From a virus, in the UHGV virus genome UHGV-1333633: a stretch of DNA of 48,160 bases, one strand, 5' to 3'. Made by a program: the position numbers and the translations under genes. The stretch's first letter is position 1. Each line of letters starts with the position of its first letter. This document shows, piece after piece, positions 1 through 48,160 of this stretch. The notes beneath the pieces were generated by a model, which made no database searches, was not told where the DNA came from, and saw only the letters and a program-made list of their open reading frames with translations.

Positions 1-421
1 CGTCCATCGAGGCTAGTTGTTTGTTTAGCCATATCGCTGATTGTCCGAACTTCTGGGCGATCTGAGTGGCGTTATATAGACCATTGCGTTCTACAATCCG
101 ATCGTAGACGTCTGCTTTTGGCGTCATCTCCTTATTCTCTAGTGCAAGACGTTCTTTCTCTTCCCATAAGTCGGCCGCCAACCTCAAAGCTTCGCCCATT
201 GTTTGTGGTACCGGTAGGGCTGATTTACTTGCGGCATCCTGTAATTCTTTGAGCGTATTGATGACGCTGCGCCGGACTGCTTTGGATTCGCGCATACCTA
301 CCAGCAGCATTTGGTCAATGTTAAGTGTGGTATAAAATGTTTTATGGCGGGTTTTCCCAACTACGAAAATTTCGTAGTTTAAATTTTCACCAATCTCATC
401 GTTTACCCGAGCGAAGGCGAC
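1..421 (-). pseudogene. Rha/KilAC antirepressor-like paralog 3, C-terminal (KilAC) part. Continues across the window junction from 47997..48160. Out of frame (+1) with its own N-terminal ORF at 396..590.
   Basis: Minus-strand translation from 421 downward gives ...NLNYEIFVVGKTRHKTFYTTLNIDQMLLVGMRESK...EEKERLALENKEMTPKADVYDRIVERNGLYNATQIAQKFGQSAIWLNKQL..., which aligns to paralogs 45449..46165 and 46985..47674. The frame is closed by a TAG at 422..424. The N-terminal Rha-domain ORF is in another frame. Confidence 0.55.
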
Positions 422-1295: not shown

Positions 1296-1569
1296 TGGCG
1301 CGGCTAACGCTCATCAGACCTTCACGGTCAAGCTGGGTGACAACGTTCTCGACTTTGCGCTGGATTACATTAGCTATACTGACAAGCCCGCGTGGACAAT
1401 GACTGTCTCACAGGATGGTATCAACTACATCACCGGTGCAATGCTTGTCCCAAATGCTGAGGTCAGTAAAGCATACCGCGCCGGACTGGGTCGTTTCTTC
1501 TTTGTGGGCGATGAGGTGACCATTGACAACCTCGGCGTTGATAACCATCTTCTGTGGGTGCCTGAATAA
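1273..1569 (+). CDS. hypothetical protein (tail module)
   Basis: 98-aa ORF packed tightly between the chaperone and the tape measure. ATGA overlap with the 1569 start. Confidence 0.45.
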   Translation: MQEIPLNNGAANAHQTFTVKLGDNVLDFALDYISYTDKPAWTMTVSQDGINYITGAMLVPNAEVSKAYRAGLGRFFFVGDEVTIDNLGVDNHLLWVPE

Positions 1570-2915
1570 TGGCTAATGTGATTACGCAGTTTCTGGTCGG
1601 TCTCGGCATCTCTTACGATGGTAAAGGTGCTGACGACATAGGTCGAGACCTCGATGAGTTAACAGACCGAGCGCGCGACGCATCTGACTCAATGGACGAA
1701 GTTGGCGACAACCTCGGTGAAAGTGTCCGGAGGGGTTCCGAAAGCGCCAAGTCACGCATCATGAGTCTGGTCACCACTTTCAAAGCTGCCGGACTTGCAA
1801 TGTCCGGTGTTGCCGCGGGTGTCGGTGCAGCGTGGGCGTTTGAGTCGAAGAAAGCGCAACAGGCTTACGACCTGAACAACCAGCTTGTAACCAGTCAGTT
1901 CGGGCCAACCGAGGTTTATGGACTTGGTGCGCTGGCTGAACAGCGTGGCGGCGACCGACAAGCAACAACAAACAGCCTTTTAAATATCGAGCGTGGGATT
2001 AACCGCATTCAGACTGGTGACGCCGGGATGATTCAGCAACTGGCGGTTGCGGGAATTCGTGTCGATAATCCCACGGGGCGCACACGCGAAGATATTTACA
2101 GCGACATCGCCGGACAGTTCCAGCGCCTTGATACGACACGTCAGAGCAACGTGGCAGAGGTTTTAGGTCTCGACCCGGCCACCGTCAGAGTGTGGCAGGA
2201 GTTCGGCGCTACAACGCTGGAAGTGTCAAAAGCACGTGCCGCTGAACTGGGTTACACCGAACAGCACAATGCCGCGCTGAACGCAATCAATCAGACCATT
2301 CTCGACACGCAGCAGAAAATGGAAGGACTGGGCAACACCATTGCCGACATTCTTGCGCCCAGCATTAAAACTCTGGCTGATGACCTGCTGACGCTTGCCA
2401 GCGGTGTAACCAACTGGATGAACAATCACCGTGACCTTATTGATGATATCTCCAGTGGCTCATGGTATGACAAGTACGTAGTGGGAAGTGCTGACAAAGC
2501 CGCTACATGGATTGGTGATAAAACAGGATTTGACCCCCGGAACGTCGGCAAAAATACACAAGATTTTCTCAACACTACCGGGGCAACCGTTAATAATAGC
2601 ATCGTAAATAATACGACGAATACTGAACAGCTTCCACCGTGGGCATGGCAACCACAGCGGGAGAACTCATCTCCGGTTAATGACGGTTCGTACGGTGCTG
2701 AAGTGAGTCCGGTAACTGATAACTACGCGCAGCAAAGTCAGCAGATGAATCAGATTATGGAGTCCATAAACCGTCCGATTCAGCTTAACGGCAATTTCAC
2801 CACACAGGGTGACGTGATACTGGACGGTAACGCAATTGGTCGTTATACCGTAAATCATCTTGAGACGCAGGTGTATCCGCAGGCGATTGACCAGACCCGG
2901 CAAAGGAGTTACTGA
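1569..2915 (+). CDS. tail tape measure protein (short, 448 aa)
   Basis: Position after the frameshifting chaperones. Gly/Ala-rich hydrophobic segment (AAGLAMSGVAAGVGAAWAF), helical Q/N-rich repeats and a C-terminal W/P-rich region. Confidence 0.5.
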   Translation: MANVITQFLVGLGISYDGKGADDIGRDLDELTDRARDASDSMDEVGDNLGESVRRGSESAKSRIMSLVTTFKAAGLAMSGVAAGVGAAWAFESKKAQQAYDLNNQLVTSQFGPTEVYGLGALAEQRGGDRQATTNSLLNIERGINRIQTGDAGMIQQLAVAGIRVDNPTGRTREDIYSDIAGQFQRLDTTRQSNVAEVLGLDPATVRVWQEFGATTLEVSKARAAELGYTEQHNAALNAINQTILDTQQKMEGLGNTIADILAPSIKTLADDLLTLASGVTNWMNNHRDLIDDISSGSWYDKYVVGSADKAATWIGDKTGFDPRNVGKNTQDFLNTTGATVNNSIVNNTTNTEQLPPWAWQPQRENSSPVNDGSYGAEVSPVTDNYAQQSQQMNQIMESINRPIQLNGNFTTQGDVILDGNAIGRYTVNHLETQVYPQAIDQTRQRSY

Positions 2916-42300: not shown

Positions 42301-43434
42301 ATGTTTCCAATTGAACAAATCATCCCAATCACAACCCGGATTTCTCCGGCGGGATTAAGTACGGCAAACTTCGCTTCCGCGATGTTGTTTGCCAATAAGA
42401 CCGAACTCCCGAGCGACTTCACCAAAGACACGGTGCGTACCTACTATTCCACCTCGTCTCTCGCTGCTGACTTCGCTCCCACAACCGAGACGTATAAGGC
42501 TGGTGCCAAATTCCTTGGCTCCACTCCGGCGGTACCGAAACTCACCGTGTGGGCTACCGCTGACGATGATGTCGATATCAAAGCAACGCTTGCCAAGGCG
42601 TTCAATAAGTATTACTGGTACTGGACTCTTGTCACCAAAGATGTACTGGGGACGGAGGCCGACGTACTGGCGATTGCATCGTGGTGTGAAGAGAACAGCG
42701 TCATGTTCCCTAACAGTCAGACCGGTGAAGCCGTGGTTAAAATTCGTAACCCGGACGCCAATGACGACATCTGTTCGAAGCTGAACACGCTGGGCTATCG
42801 TCACGCGTTTACCGTTGCTCATGCAACCGACCCGTATGCGGCCTATGCGCTCATCAAGCACTCTGCCTCGGTCAACTACAGTGCCGATAACAGCACTATT
42901 GACACTGAGTTTAAGAAATCTCCTGGTGTTGCTGCTGAAGACCTGTCCGACACCGAACAGAACGCGATGGTCACCAAACGTTGCGCATTCTACAGCGTGC
43001 TTGACCTACAGGGGAGCACCGACAGCGGTCGCTGGCTGCAGACGTGGTCGCACAGTACCTACGGTGAGTCCATTTCCGACATCGTCGATTTGGACGCGTT
43101 TGTGAACTCTCTGCGTGTGGAACTGTACAATACCATTGTCAACCAGACCACCAAACTCCCGCAGACTCCGGTTGGTCAGGAAGCGCTCATCGGTGCGGCC
43201 AAACGTGTGGGTAGACAATATATTCGCAACCGTTATCTCGGCCCACGCAATTACATCAGTCCCGACACCGGTCTGGAAGCGTACACCGAGGGATTCGAAG
43301 TGCTGACTAAAGCGACGGATATTCTCGACCTGTCCGATTCTGACCGCGCGGCACGTAAGTCTGCACCGATTAACATGCGTGTGTTCAAAGCTGGTAGCGT
43401 CAGAATTTGTGACGTCACCGTTGACGTTTATTAA
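42301..43434 (+). CDS. major tail protein, sheath-like (DUF3383-like)
   Basis: 377 aa. Followed by a small tube-like gene. The baseplate genes are of contractile-tail type. Confidence 0.4.
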   Translation: MFPIEQIIPITTRISPAGLSTANFASAMLFANKTELPSDFTKDTVRTYYSTSSLAADFAPTTETYKAGAKFLGSTPAVPKLTVWATADDDVDIKATLAKAFNKYYWYWTLVTKDVLGTEADVLAIASWCEENSVMFPNSQTGEAVVKIRNPDANDDICSKLNTLGYRHAFTVAHATDPYAAYALIKHSASVNYSADNSTIDTEFKKSPGVAAEDLSDTEQNAMVTKRCAFYSVLDLQGSTDSGRWLQTWSHSTYGESISDIVDLDAFVNSLRVELYNTIVNQTTKLPQTPVGQEALIGAAKRVGRQYIRNRYLGPRNYISPDTGLEAYTEGFEVLTKATDILDLSDSDRAARKSAPINMRVFKAGSVRICDVTVDVY

Positions 43435-43447
43435 TGGAGAATGACCG

Positions 43448-43864
43448 ATGTCATTAGAAAACTTTTCCACAAGTAACACGGTCATCACAATTAATGGCCG
43501 CATCATCACTTCATTCGGGGAGTCCGACCCGCCGTACACTGACGAGCCGATTGACGCGTCAACTGTGTTACGTCGTGGTCTGGGTGGTAATGCTATTCGT
43601 CTGGACCGTATCAACCCGGGTCGTCGTGTCACACTGAACCTAAACCCTGGTTCGGCTGACTCCGCGTATATTAACGGACTGTTTCAGAGTAAGGCCAACA
43701 TCGAGTTGACCTATACTCAAATCGGCACACTTGACGCCGCTGTGGGCACAGAAGGTGTGATTGTGAATGATGGTCCGCGCGGGCGTGGTGGTCAGACAAT
43801 TACCGATGACCAGTGGATTTTTGAGTTCAATTCATGGACTGCGACAAAGGGTCCAGCAAGCTAA
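43448..43864 (+). CDS. tail tube-like protein (DUF3277-like)
   Basis: 138 aa directly after the sheath-like gene. Confidence 0.4.
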   Translation: MSLENFSTSNTVITINGRIITSFGESDPPYTDEPIDASTVLRRGLGGNAIRLDRINPGRRVTLNLNPGSADSAYINGLFQSKANIELTYTQIGTLDAAVGTEGVIVNDGPRGRGGQTITDDQWIFEFNSWTATKGPAS

Positions 43865-43890
43865 ATGAAAGGGGCCATCAGGCCCCTTTT
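43845..43890. repeat. direct repeat L (tube gene 3' end + terminator) flanking the homing-endonuclease gene. Partner at 45393..45435.
   Basis: caaagggtccagcaagctaaatgaaaggggccatcaggcccctttt versus caagggtccggcaagctaaacaaaaggggccatcgggcccctt. Confidence 0.8.
43866..43890 (+). terminator. terminator aggggcc-atca-ggcccct + TTTT after the tube gene. The stop codon of the minus-strand HEG lies in its loop.
   Basis: Read directly. Confidence 0.6.
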
Positions 43891-45326
43891 CTCCACATGT
43901 ATTTTTTAGTACCCGAATTTTCCGTAATCAAACACCCCGCCTCATCCATCATTTGACGTTGAGTCTTTTTCTTGGAAAATACCGACGGGTCAACCCCTAA
44001 CTTACTTAGCGTTTTTGGGATGTTAATCTTCCACCATTGTTGCCGACTCATGAAACCCACTTTCCGGTGCCATATTCTGAATGATGTGACCGAATCATCA
44101 ACCAGTTCGAATCCTGAGTTTTCATAACTTGACCCGTCGAAATAGTCACAATCTACGAACGATTGGCACCATTGCATATTTAGAGCCGCGGCCGCGTGTT
44201 TGAACAGCTTGGACTGACCACCTCTGACCATACAACTCGTGGCATAACGTACCATATCGAATCCACCCTCAGCAATTTGGTTAAATGTCATAACTGCGAC
44301 GATTTGACCGGATTTATGGGTGAGTGCGAAATTATGTGAGGCCCGAGCATAGCCCTGAACGTGATGTTCAATCAGGAACTTCCGGGCATCTTTGCCGGGG
44401 ATATTCACAATCTTACAGTCGCGAGCGTTGACTCTCACATCTTCGGAGTGCCCCGTGGCGTTTTTTATGATTCGCGTAATGATTGGTTTTTTATCTTTCC
44501 AGTCTTGTTCTGATATTGATATCAATCTATACCCAACACTGTTAGTTCTGATACGTTTGTTTTTGTGATATCCCCTCGGTCGTTTCTGCAGGCTGTGCCA
44601 GTATGTGCCATTGAATTCTATTGCCACTTTTGAAGCGTGGTCCACTATGTCGAGTTCTTGAGGTGCGATTAGTGAGCGATTCGAAATGTCAACATCACCG
44701 ATTAGCGACTGTATTTCCACTTCGAAACTTGATGGTCCCACGTTCGCGCATTTGGGGCAACCCACCCCGTAAGCATGCTGAAACGCAATCGGTGTGAAGT
44801 CTCCGTGTTTTTCGCATGTAACTACAATTTTGTCGCCAGATTTGGTGTATGATGTTTTGTCATAGGTATATGGACTACCACTGTCTTTCATTTTTTGGAC
44901 GAATGATTCCGTATCGTATTTCCCACCTTGTTTGCACTTGGGACAACCTTGCCCCGTGGTGCAGTGTGCAGATGGAGTCTGGTAGAAATCTCCATGAGTG
45001 GGACAGGTGATTCTCATCTTTGTACGGGTGTCAACATATGTTTCGGGGTGGTACTCATATTTATTTCCGTGTTTCTCTTTGGCGCGGTCGAGCATTTCAG
45101 AAACAGACTTCCGTTTGTTCGTATTTTTAATTTTTTTTGCACATTCTGGGCAGTTGCTGCCATTAGTGTGGTCTGCTGCAATCTGTAAGAAATCCCCGTG
45201 AATGCGGCATTTTATCCGAACTGTGTTCGCCTTACCCGTGTAAACTACCCCCGTGTAATCGTACCTGTCACCGTGTACAGATTTGGCCTTATTGACGTAT
45301 TCTTCGGTTGTCAACTTTTTGGACAT
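43878..45326 (-). CDS. free-standing homing-endonuclease-like protein: 3 Zn-ribbon repeats + Vsr-like/DUF559 PD-(D/E)xK nuclease domain + C-terminal domain
   Basis: Repeats with HGDF...GCPxC. ELDIVDHASKVAIEFNGTYWH matches the Vsr/DUF559 core. Start MSKK after RBS gagggaggag. Confidence 0.6.
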   Translation of the reverse strand: MSKKLTTEEYVNKAKSVHGDRYDYTGVVYTGKANTVRIKCRIHGDFLQIAADHTNGSNCPECAKKIKNTNKRKSVSEMLDRAKEKHGNKYEYHPETYVDTRTKMRITCPTHGDFYQTPSAHCTTGQGCPKCKQGGKYDTESFVQKMKDSGSPYTYDKTSYTKSGDKIVVTCEKHGDFTPIAFQHAYGVGCPKCANVGPSSFEVEIQSLIGDVDISNRSLIAPQELDIVDHASKVAIEFNGTYWHSLQKRPRGYHKNKRIRTNSVGYRLISISEQDWKDKKPIITRIIKNATGHSEDVRVNARDCKIVNIPGKDARKFLIEHHVQGYARASHNFALTHKSGQIVAVMTFNQIAEGGFDMVRYATSCMVRGGQSKLFKHAAAALNMQWCQSFVDCDYFDGSSYENSGFELVDDSVTSFRIWHRKVGFMSRQQWWKINIPKTLSKLGVDPSVFSKKKTQRQMMDEAGCLITENSGTKKYMWRKGA

Positions 45327-45392
45327 GTTCTCCTCCCTCTCATGATGACCAACGTGTTTCGATTGAATAATACACGTGCTACATAGCCAAAA

Positions 45393-45435
45393 CAAGGGTC
45401 CGGCAAGCTAAACAAAAGGGGCCATCGGGCCCCTT
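45393..45435. repeat. direct repeat R (copy of tube gene 3' end + terminator)
   Basis: See 43845..43890. Confidence 0.8.
45411..45435 (-). terminator. minus-strand terminator for Rha copy 1 (hairpin + ttttgttt)
   Basis: Read on the reverse complement. Confidence 0.55.
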
Positions 45436-45448
45436 GGTTATTTTTAAC

Positions 45449-46165
45449 TCAAATCAAACCTTCTTCAGATAATTTTCTGACAATCCACATTTCACCTTCG
45501 GCATAGAACATAGGTTGTGAGAACCCATTCTCTGTCTCCCGCATTATCCCGTACCCCTTATCGATGAACCATTGCTGAAATACACGTCCACGCTTCACGG
45601 AGCGATTGTAGACGTCCATTGAGGTTAACTGCTTGTTTAACCATATCGCTGATTGTCCGAACTTCTGGGCGATCTGAGTGGCGTTATAGAGACCATTGCG
45701 TTCTACAATCCGGTCGTAGACGTCTGCTTTTGGTGTCATCTCCTCATTCTCTAGTGCAAGACGTTCTTTCTCTTTCTCGCTTTCCAGCAGCGCTTCAAGT
45801 GCTTGAATATAGTTTTGTGGTAGTGCGGGTGTATTCACCCGTGATTCCAGCTCTTGCCAACGCTTGATTATCTTCATTCGTAATTGAGCGTTATACCCTG
45901 ACACCAGGCAGATGGTGTTATCTTTATCCAGCCGGTACTCCCATGCGTTTGGGTTGGTGGTATCATACTGAATGCACGTAACCCCATGATTCGTAACGTA
46001 ACTCAAATTTGAGTTACGAACATAATCTTCATCGTGACCACCATGTAGAGCGCAGAGCATTGAGCGAATGTCTCTGCAAACATTGTCGTGACGCTTCTCA
46101 ACTAGCGTCGCAATCTCGCGGCTAGACATGGTTAGTTCCGATTTTGTGTTTACTAAATCGTTCAT
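45449..46165 (-). CDS. Rha-family regulatory protein with KilAC (antirepressor C-terminal) domain, paralog 1 (intact)
   Basis: N-terminus TMSSREIATLVEKRHDNV (Phage_pRha). C-terminus YNATQIAQKFGQSAIWLNKQL... (KilAC). Confidence 0.75.
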   Translation of the reverse strand: MNDLVNTKSELTMSSREIATLVEKRHDNVCRDIRSMLCALHGGHDEDYVRNSNLSYVTNHGVTCIQYDTTNPNAWEYRLDKDNTICLVSGYNAQLRMKIIKRWQELESRVNTPALPQNYIQALEALLESEKEKERLALENEEMTPKADVYDRIVERNGLYNATQIAQKFGQSAIWLNKQLTSMDVYNRSVKRGRVFQQWFIDKGYGIMRETENGFSQPMFYAEGEMWIVRKLSEEGLI

Positions 46166-46172
46166 CTCTGTT

Positions 46173-46182
46173 CCCCCCCCCC
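46173..46182. repeat. C10 homopolymer (G10 on the mRNA) between RBS and the remaining leader of Rha paralog 1
   Basis: Read directly. Absent from the leaders of the other copies. Confidence 0.9.
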
Positions 46183-46285
46183 TCTTGTTCGTGTGAGTGT
46201 AGTTTCGATAAAAATCACGACCCGTTCAAATCGATTTATTCATGGTCACGATTAACGATGTGATTGATCACAATTGACCCCTTAG

Positions 46286-46429
46286 TTATTTTCTTTTACT
46301 CCGAATGTGAAAGTCTGCTTTATCCATCATGTCTTTGCGCCAGCAAACACCGGTGCCCATATACGCCGGGTCGTCACTTTCCGCATAACCAAATTCGTTT
46401 TCATGGTATGTGCAAATCGTGTCGGTCTG
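46286..46429 (-). pseudogene. 3' fragment of the small exported-protein gene (paralog of 46709..46963)
   Basis: Translates to QTDTICTYHENEFGYAESDDPAYMGTGVCWRKDMMDKADFHIRSKRK*, about 90% identical to the C-terminus of the 46709 ORF. No N-terminus. Confidence 0.5.
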
Positions 46430-46984: not shown

Positions 46985-47674
46985 TCAAATCAAACCTTCT
47001 TCAGATAATTTTCTGACAATCCACATTTCACCTTCGGCATAGAACATAGGTTGTGAGAACCCATTCTCTGTCTCCCGCATTATCCCGTACCCCTTATCGA
47101 TGAACCACTGTTGAAATACACGTCCGCGCTTCACGGAGCGATTGTAGACGTCCATCGAGGCTAGTTGTTTGTTTAGCCATATCGCTGATTGTCCGAACTT
47201 CTGTGCGATTTGAGTGGCGTTATAGAGACCATTGCGTTCTACGATTCGGTCGTAGACGTCTGCTTTTGGTGCTGCTATCGATAGTTTCTCCTGCGCCAAA
47301 AGCTTCTGTTCGTACTCGGTAGCCCATGCTCTCGCGGCTTCTGCTGGATTTGTGAAGTCTGGTAGTGTCGGTTTGTTGGCGTTCTCAAGTTCTTGCCAAC
47401 GGTTAATCAACTTCTGACGCAAGGGAATGTTATAGCCAGTCATTAACAGTAGTGTTTGATTCTTGGTTAGCAGATACTCGGATGTATACCCTCTATTATC
47501 TGTAAGTGACTGAAATTCCTCATGGTCCAAATTTGGACCATCTTTTAACTGCTCGATAATTGTGCGAATATCGCGAATAATGTGTTTATGTTCCTTCCCA
47601 GTCAATTCCGCAATCTCACGGCTGGACATCGTTTGTACATCGCCGACAGTCATTAAGCCATTCATATCTCGCAT
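46985..47674 (-). CDS. Rha-family / KilAC antirepressor-like protein, paralog 2 (intact)
   Basis: MSSREIAELTGKEHKHIIRDIR N-terminus. C-terminal 100 aa identical to paralog 1. Confidence 0.75.
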   Translation of the reverse strand: MRDMNGLMTVGDVQTMSSREIAELTGKEHKHIIRDIRTIIEQLKDGPNLDHEEFQSLTDNRGYTSEYLLTKNQTLLLMTGYNIPLRQKLINRWQELENANKPTLPDFTNPAEAARAWATEYEQKLLAQEKLSIAAPKADVYDRIVERNGLYNATQIAQKFGQSAIWLNKQLASMDVYNRSVKRGRVFQQWFIDKGYGIMRETENGFSQPMFYAEGEMWIVRKLSEEGLI

Positions 47675-47996: not shown

Positions 47997-48160
47997 TTAA
48001 ATCAAACCTTCTTCGGATAATTTTCTGACAATCCACATTTCACCTTCGGCATAGAACATAGGTTGTGAGAACCCATTCTCTGTCTCCCGCATTATCCCGT
48101 ACCCCTTATCGATGAACCACTGTTGAAATACACGTCCGCGCTTCACGGAGCGATTGTAGA
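47997..48160 (-). CDS. 3' end of Rha/KilAC paralog 3. The gene continues across the window junction into 1..421.
   Basis: Identical to 46985..47148. Stop at 47997..47999. The window end joins the window start in perfect register with paralog 2. Confidence 0.55.
   Translation of the reverse strand, partial: YNRSVKRGRVFQQWFIDKGYGIMRETENGFSQPMFYAEGEMWIVRKLSEEGLI

Follow-up and report, generated by a model that had tools for sequence, protein, structure and literature searches.

How can a selfish gene settle in the narrow space between two converging transcription units, and why should it lie there between two copies of the same gene end and terminator? The question is raised by the virus genome UHGV-1333633 of the UHGV collection, of which a stretch of 48,160 nucleotides (nt), here called the window, was analysed at its full length. 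Judged by its sequence, the window comes from a Jedunavirus-type Klebsiella myophage. It carries a free-standing homing endonuclease gene (HEG) on the minus strand, between the end of a putative tail tube gene and an anti-repressor-like gene (Ant-type gene). HEGs shape which parts of phage genomes get exchanged. The harmless settling of a free-standing HEG in a tight junction, with homology on both sides, is rarely visible, and the natural population described here gives a clean picture of it. The arrangement is probably that of a Hef-like HEG cassette placed between two convergent transcription units and spreading by intronless homing, with a flanking duplication that goes back to one founding event.

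Two copies of a gene end and its terminator

The junction consists of the following elements.

43847..43888, plus strand: left repeat copy; K-G-P-A-S-stop of the tube gene plus hairpin, always followed by TTCTCC (3' end of the HEG)
43868..43889, both strands: left terminator hairpin, AAAGGGGCC-ATCA-GGCCCCTTT; terminator-like call on the minus strand, 9 pairs; -17.7 (plus) and -19.0 (minus) kcal/mol, z about -3
43878..45326, minus strand: free-standing HEG, 482 amino acids; phrog_559, E=6e-110; ATG at 45326, GGAGG 5 nt upstream
45327..45393, minus strand: HEG leader, 67 nt; Shine-Dalgarno sequence GGAGG at 45332-45336; without homologue in HEG-less genomes
45394..45435, plus strand: right repeat copy; non-coding pseudo 3' end of the tube gene plus hairpin, followed by (A/G)GTTATTT, as in HEG-less genomes
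45416..45435, both strands: right terminator hairpin, AAGGGGCC-ATCG-GGCCCCTT; terminator-like on both strands; -18.1 and -16.6 kcal/mol

A repeat search recovered a pair of 42-nt direct repeats at 43847-43888 and 45394-45435, identical at 38 of 42 positions and spaced 1547 nt from start to start. The chance expectation for such a pair in the whole 48-kb window is 6e-10, and shuffled sequence gave no match to the 42-nt repeat even at 3 or fewer mismatches. Ungapped identity ends at 43888/45435, leftward extension needs a 1-nt gap (ACAAAGGG vs AAC-AAGGG), and the longest exact run common to both copies is 12 nt. The left copy reads AAG GGT CCA GCA AGC TAA, or K-G-P-A-S-stop, in the frame of the 138-codon open reading frame (ORF) at 43448..43864, and runs on past the tube stop codon into the hairpin at 43868-43889. 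The right copy is built alike and differs at four positions.

The insert between the repeats (43889-45393) is 1505 nt long, and its sole content is the minus-strand ORF 43878..45326 with its 67-nt leader. The stop codon of the HEG, TGA, is the reverse complement of 43878-43880, within the loop of the left hairpin, and the reverse complement of 43881-43889, AAA GGG GCC (K-G-A), is the 3' arm of the left stem. Four distant homologues, aligned with the HEG protein, show a conserved W-x-K as the end of the family, and K480 in it is invariant. This lysine thus belongs to the protein itself, and the contribution of the hairpin is confined to Gly-Ala and the stop codon; the invariant final lysine of the family straddles the repeat boundary.

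Most of this layout had been anticipated in a preliminary description of the same DNA. The two direct repeats of tube end and hairpin terminator that bracket the HEG were recovered by the repeat search and by reading of the sequence; their boundaries, given there as 43845-43890 and 45393-45435, were correct in location and 1-2 nt too generous at the ends. That the HEG is the only gene between the repeats and has its stop codon in the terminator loop agrees with the ORFs and the sequence. The derivation of K-G-A and the stop codon from the hairpin stands for Gly-Ala and the stop and falls for the K, which is the invariant C-terminal lysine of the family.

Both hairpins are terminator-like, with folding energies of -17 to -19 kcal/mol, and the right one is recorded as a rho-independent terminator in KpV79 and Geezett. 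The left hairpin is predicted to serve the tube transcript on the plus strand and the HEG transcript on the minus strand, and the right hairpin to stop the leftward Ant-type genes ahead of the HEG. The window holds neither a paralogue of the HEG nor a further copy of the hairpin.

Related genomes present the junction both with and without the gene. The sample consisted of annotated phage records and IMG/VR contigs that were scanned with a tube-end/hairpin motif. At HEG-less loci (KpV52, RCIP0045, RCIP0091, ZCEC13, IME346 and IMG/VR contigs) the 42-nt element is single-copy and is followed directly by AGTTATTT, without exception (18/18); a single repeat copy is what the preliminary description had expected of relatives without the insert. 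BLAST alignments of HEG-less genomes to the window end at 43888 and start again at 45394, the same 42 nt of the query being used in both parts. Two copies of the element, 1547 nt apart, are present in all 11 HEG-bearing genomes, namely the window, KpV79, Geezett, BUCT791, FZ14, PCCM_KpPS2, HF1013, RCIP0033 and three IMG/VR contigs. The inner junction, at which (C/G)AAAC abuts AAGGGTCC, is kept in every one of them, as CAAAAC in eight and as CGAAAC in the three genomes of lineage B. Since two copies and an identical inner junction are found in all 11, the duplication arose once. In the phage collection the HEG occurs in 11 of about 71 related records, among them KpV79, the record nearest to the window (97.2%).

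The 4-nt loops of the hairpins (window 43877-43880 and 45424-45427), compared across all loci, form reverse-complement pairs, CGAT/ATCG, ATCA/TGAT and GATT/AATC, and the allele AATT is self-complementary. These pairs suggest repeated flipping across the perfect inverted-repeat stem, possibly via template switching or intramolecular recombination. The loop preserves the stop codon of the HEG in 11/11 left copies, ATCA giving TGA and ATTA giving TAA.

The two copies differ in their diversity. The left copy has four alleles in the 11 HEG-bearing genomes, and these follow the three lineages of the HEG; the right copy has nine. The reference set of resident alleles is provided by the single copy of the 18 HEG-less loci, with 12 alleles. 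Each right copy is 0-3 mismatches away from some HEG-less allele vs 3-7 from its own left partner, and the right copy of locus L015 equals the single copy of KpV52 with no difference. Mismatch maps place the block shared within a HEG lineage between a point about 50 nt or more left of the repeat and the inside of the right repeat. Non-homology begins 8 nt past the right hairpin where downstream contexts differ. From the allele patterns and the limits of the shared block it follows that the left copy travels with the HEG and that the right copy is the resident terminator. The earlier proposal that the HEG carried target homology in with it thus holds in a specific sense: it is the left copy that is co-inherited (four alleles vs nine).

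The endonuclease, its mobility and the origin of the duplication

The HEG protein has three zinc-ribbon repeats at its N-terminus, with C..H...C..C spacing, which match the DUF723 and DUF4379 treble-clef models. Its residues 223-286 match the catalytic domain of I-Bth0305I (3r3p_A, E=3e-4, phmmer), in accordance with the label 'Vsr-like' given to it earlier. The nuclease core covers about residues 220-290 and has a weak match to the Pfam model MTES_1575, of restriction-endonuclease-like (REase-like) type. The stretch ELD(224-226)...AIEFNG.YWH(235-244) is invariant across five homologues and includes E224, D226, E237 and H244, candidate counterparts of residues of the published EDxHD motif. The matches to 3r3p and to phrog_559 and the homologues annotated as Hef-like assign the protein to a known family, as a Vsr-like/EDxHD-type, Hef-like endonuclease. 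The prototype of the EDxHD (Vsr-like) family, I-Bth0305I, is a homodimer with a ~60-bp footprint and a 14-bp pseudopalindromic core (PMC3239194). Relatives of the HEG protein were found by tblastn in more than 900 phage records, several of which are annotated as 'Hef-like homing endonuclease'. The C-terminal ~180 residues (~300-482; window 43878-44430) are kept in distant Hef-like proteins, with invariant R302, C304, H322, Q324, GG369-370 and others, and no Pfam or NCBIfam model matched this domain.

The gene is intergenic, with the tube stop codon on one side and the Ant-type gene on the other, and not part of an intron or intein. At 43000-46300 no Rfam intron or other family came near the gathering threshold, and the two sub-threshold matches are chance ones. 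The G+C content of the HEG is 45% vs 52% for sheath plus tube. The KpV79 record has a promoter annotated at a position matching window ~45362-45390, a candidate weak promoter of the HEG.

The 482-codon ORF is intact in 10/10 complete copies, the eleventh (L023) being cut by the end of its locus. The ratio of nonsynonymous to synonymous substitution rates (dN/dS) is 0.05-0.09, both between and within lineages, and shows that the protein is under purifying selection. The three HEG lineages are 90-92% identical to each other and 98-99.9% identical within. The element is old, since its lineages differ by 8-10%. Within a lineage the HEG is 98-99.9% identical vs 91-92% for the adjoining tube gene, for example 98.2 vs 91.1 in the pair window/BUCT791 and 99.8 vs 91.1 in FZ14/L015. 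These identities, together with the low dN/dS, agree with the mobility proposed in the preliminary description and show that the HEG block moved laterally between divergent backgrounds. The movement was presumably driven by the protein's own cleavage; the exchange tracts are short, and general recombination could contribute.

The following course of events is proposed. The HEG-less state would have one bidirectional terminator directly after the tube stop codon. The co-inherited unit would begin with about the last 50 nt of the tube gene or less and continue through the left hairpin and the HEG to the end of the 67-nt leader, and the right copy would be the recipient genome's own tube end and terminator. 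The HEG would spread by double-strand-break repair (intronless homing) during mixed infections. Work on T4 shows that inheritance of a free-standing HEG requires the broken recipient to be resected as far as sequence homologous to the donor on both flanks of the gene, and the same phage provides a documented case of illegitimate one-sided break repair (PMC2988022). The duplication would have originated in one founding 'one-sided', partly illegitimate repair event, in which the homologous end on the tube side copied terminator, HEG and leader from the donor, after which illegitimate joining linked the copied strand to a recipient end with its own tube end and terminator still in place. The repeat would then be as long as the distance from the break to the site of the original insertion.

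Two reasons may account for the retention of the duplication. Both flanking operons would stay terminated, with the HEG insulated between two terminators; with two terminators in place of one, transcription would still end after the sheath-tube operon as well as after the leftward accessory genes. In addition, genomes of unrelated downstream DNA may have right-hand homology only in the roughly 50 nt made up of the right copy and the conserved AGTTATTT. Because the right side is hypervariable, most potential recipients share nothing there beyond the right repeat and AGTTATTT; on the left stands the conserved tube gene. Right-hand exchange boundaries fall inside this region. The founding duplication would in this way have preserved the termination of two convergent operons, insulated a selfish gene and furnished a conserved arm of ~50 nt next to hypervariable DNA. 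Should the repeat indeed act as the homology arm on the right, its length would be a natural lower limit for the homology that homing requires in these phages, and the place of the terminator as a boundary of module exchange would be explained.

Several observations weigh against this account. No near-isogenic pair with and without the HEG was found among the related genomes, and a consensus scan called no promoter for the HEG in the leader. The HEG lineages are as divergent as the genomes, and the pattern could owe much to general recombination plus loss and not to active homing. The linkage of the left copy is partly forced, since the HEG ORF overlaps it. None of the 145 variable columns of the tube gene is diagnostic of HEG presence, so no polymorphism-based immunity is seen there. 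If the target is no longer than 42 bp and is contained in the repeat and one of its flanks, a HEG-bearing genome has it intact, and immunity by site disruption therefore needs recognition that spans both flanks (>44 bp); such recognition is conceivable for a dimer with six zinc-ribbon modules, given the 60-bp footprint of the family. Finally, no duplication comparable to that of the window was found around four distant homologues, and none that is convincing around the Hef-like homologues in KE08, NEB7 and Jersey.

The same empty sites could have arisen by loss. The HEG and two repeats would then be ancestral, HEG-less genomes would be precise deletions between the repeats, the nuclease would no longer drive spread, and the patchy distribution would result from deletion plus ordinary recombination. 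Repeat-mediated deletion would yield exactly the empty sites observed, and the difference of 8-10% between HEG lineages, as large as that between genomes, speaks for an old element. The single copy of IME346 reads as the left copy of BUCT791/L022 through the loop and then as resident downstream sequence; this identity to a left-copy allele is compatible with excision and with ancestry equally. Loss as the dominant process is, however, unlikely. The HEG is present in just 11 of about 71 related records, lateral movement is required by a within-lineage HEG identity far above that of the flanks in several independent backgrounds and five downstream contexts, and a dN/dS of 0.05-0.09 with 0/10 complete ORFs disrupted points to a selected function. 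A longest exact run of 12 nt also makes the repeats a poor substrate for frequent deletion.

An origin of opposite polarity is less probable still. The HEG would have inserted after the resident terminator, the left copy being resident, and the right copy would have been imported from a former host as an upstream insulator. Three of the four differences between the copies in the window (CCG, ACA) do match the natural single-copy allele type of RCIP0045 and ZCEC13, and this genome taken alone gives the impression of a right copy from another phage, but across the 11 HEG-bearing genomes it is the right copy that varies with local background and downstream context, the left being nearly constant per HEG lineage, and 3/9 right-copy alleles are 0-1 mismatches from single copies of KpV52 type or IME346 type. 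Direct repeats around an insert also resemble, superficially, the target-site duplication of a transposon. Here the insert is one gene of HEG type, without transposase or integrase and without inverted terminal repeats except the hairpins themselves, and 42 nt is far above the known lengths of staggered-cut duplications. Chance similarity of two terminators is countered by the expectation of 6e-10 and an assembly artefact by the recurrence of the architecture in 11 independently assembled genomes, so that the probability left to these three explanations together is close to nil. A longer duplication that has since decayed was considered and rejected: a shared GATGACCA motif hinted that the 67-nt leader is a diverged copy of the tube 3' end, and the alignments were no better than those of shuffles (local p=0.16, global p=0.34).

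Relation to known homing systems

Among known endonucleases, Hef and Hef-like HEGs (Hef of phage U5, F-LimVII and Jersey gp03) are like the window HEG in the homology of the nuclease core and of the C-terminal domain. They are also free-standing, lie beside or between essential genes, are often antisense to and convergent with a structural gene, and have a patchy distribution. Unlike the Hef-like HEGs examined, the window HEG is bracketed by a 42-nt duplication of its neighbour's 3' end and terminator, and ends inside the terminator. Hef is reported to target nrdB (PMC2988022). I-Bth0305I matches in the catalytic domain and is bipartite in a similar way, its DNA-binding modules preceding the nuclease (PMC3239194). 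It is intron-encoded in recA and carries NUMOD motifs, whereas the window HEG is free-standing and has three DUF723-like zinc-ribbon repeats and an extra C-terminal domain of ~180 amino acids.

The seg and mob genes of T4 are likewise free-standing intergenic nuclease genes, presumed to spread by break repair, with co-conversion of flanks and donor homology on both sides (PMC2988022). Their enzymes cut hundreds to thousands of bp away and give long co-conversion tracts, whereas for the window HEG linkage is lost over some 50 nt of the left flank and, on the other side, before the repeat ends. Flanking duplications around seg or mob genes are not mentioned in the review (PMC2988022). Acquisition of the T4 td intron by 'one-sided' repair (Parker, Belisle and Belfort, 1999, as summarised in PMC2988022) resembles the founding event proposed here, in that one-sided homology is joined at microhomology on the other side; such a reaction would duplicate the interval from break to insertion. 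The td case is a laboratory observation on an intron, and we infer that it may apply to the duplication in the window.

A further parallel exists in organelles. Free-standing endonuclease ORFs of organelles insert near the 3' end of a gene and carry a replacement copy of that end, and the displaced original is left as a downstream pseudo-end, as here. They are typically in-frame fusions in mitochondrial genes, whereas the window HEG is antisense and its duplicated unit is dominated by a bidirectional terminator.

The protein family and the annotation of relatives as endonucleases are thus known, and intronless homing is the most likely mode of spread. The flanking duplication of a gene end and bidirectional terminator with the stop codon in the loop is undescribed in the open-access literature searched. 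The search covered Jedunavirus homing endonucleases, intronless homing with direct repeats, and duplicated free-standing HEGs, and is not proof of novelty. Jedunaviruses are in use for Klebsiella phage therapy work. HEG cassettes bias the inheritance of markers in phage cocktails and engineered crosses.

Neighbouring genes and a second endonuclease cassette

Three genes surround the junction.

42301..43434, plus strand: tail sheath gene, 377 amino acids; Pfam DUF3383, E=2.5e-27; 'tail sheath' in the KpV52, KpV79 and Geezett records
43448..43864, plus strand: putative tail tube gene, 138 amino acids; phrog_280 'virion structural protein', E=1e-25; follows the sheath gene immediately; the left repeat contains its final five codons and stop (43847-43864)
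45449..46165, minus strand: Rha/KilAC anti-repressor-like gene; Pfam Phage_pRha and ANT; opens the hypervariable leftward accessory region and runs convergently towards the right hairpin

The sheath gene is the upstream member of a late structural operon that ends at the left hairpin. The label 'tube', used already in the preliminary description, is plausible from the position after the DUF3383 sheath; the best match to a solved structure, the Pam3 tube protein 8hdr, is full length and lends it weak support (E=0.39). In all other genomes a TTTTT stands about 35 nt before the repeat; KpV52 has TTTT, and the last ~17 residues of its annotated tube protein (L001, 1449-1868) are frameshifted (...QWILSSIHGLHQRVQQAK) and end at the TGA in AAATGAAAGG, beside the hairpin. 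The shortened run is either a homopolymer sequencing error or a genuine variant.

Downstream of the junction, 28 loci present at least 12 unrelated contexts, in five of which the HEG is present. In the window, paralogues of the Rha/KilAC anti-repressor-like gene stand in tandem at 45449-46165, 46985-47674 and 47997-48146, all on the minus strand, and the similarity continues at window 1-162. Their C-terminal ~49-64 residues are near-identical (...RGRVFQQWFIDKGYGIMRETENGFSQPMFYAEGEMWIVRKLSEEGLI), and the ends of the window appear to cut through the family.

A second endonuclease gene, unrelated to the first, lies antisense between sheath and tube in FZ14 (L005, 3443-4337) and RCIP0091 (L007, 1943-2837), and also in L017 and L025. 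It encodes 295 amino acids, with a T5orf172-type nuclease and three N-terminal zinc-ribbon repeats like those of the first, and is without counterpart in the window, where the sheath-tube junction (43435-43447) has 13 nt and no hairpin. FZ14 has an antisense endonuclease gene on each side of its tube gene. The end of the second cassette is AAGGGGCC-TATTT-GGCCCCTT, with an 8-bp stem identical to that of the tube terminator. The protein ends in Y-R-W-L-K-G-A-K-stop, in which K-G-A is encoded by AAA GGG GCC and the last codons, AAA TAG, stand at the loop. Distant homologues align only to about residues 281-289 of 295, and the tail therefore lies outside the family core. Across all loci the hairpin stem occurs only at the tube end, in the right copy and at the end of the second endonuclease gene.

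Each endonuclease cassette thus adds one copy of the terminator, which supports the hairpin as part of the mobile unit. It may be, though this is rather doubtful, that the hairpin AAAGGGGCC-loop-GGCCCCTT is a portable 3' module of unrelated HEG cassettes, the 42-nt repeat being a fossil of the break-to-insertion interval and a minimal homology arm by which the cassette could enter genomes with unrelated downstream DNA. Were this true, it would amount to terminator-anchored spread, which is undescribed for free-standing endonucleases.

The first ~90 nt of the tube gene (equivalent to window 43448-43540) form a strongly diverged haplotype that is common to L005, L007, L017 and L025, and partly to L024. 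In the genomes with the second HEG such a haplotype is what co-conversion or target-site immunity classically leaves beside a free-standing endonuclease gene. In the head-gene region of RCIP0045 (L012), a perfect 15-nt direct repeat, CGCATGCTGGCACCG, lies at 1257-1271 and 2979-2993, around a third Hef-like gene (1489..2880). Chance would hardly produce such a repeat within 1.9 kb, and it may represent a further, small duplication of flanking sequence. In the FZ14 record (L031, NC_071133.1) positions 1-388 repeat the last ~390 nt, either as an assembly overlap or as terminal redundancy. This overlap has given rise to a spurious 'restriction enzyme' coding sequence across the origin and to two small ORFs, which are really the 5' end of the endonuclease gene.

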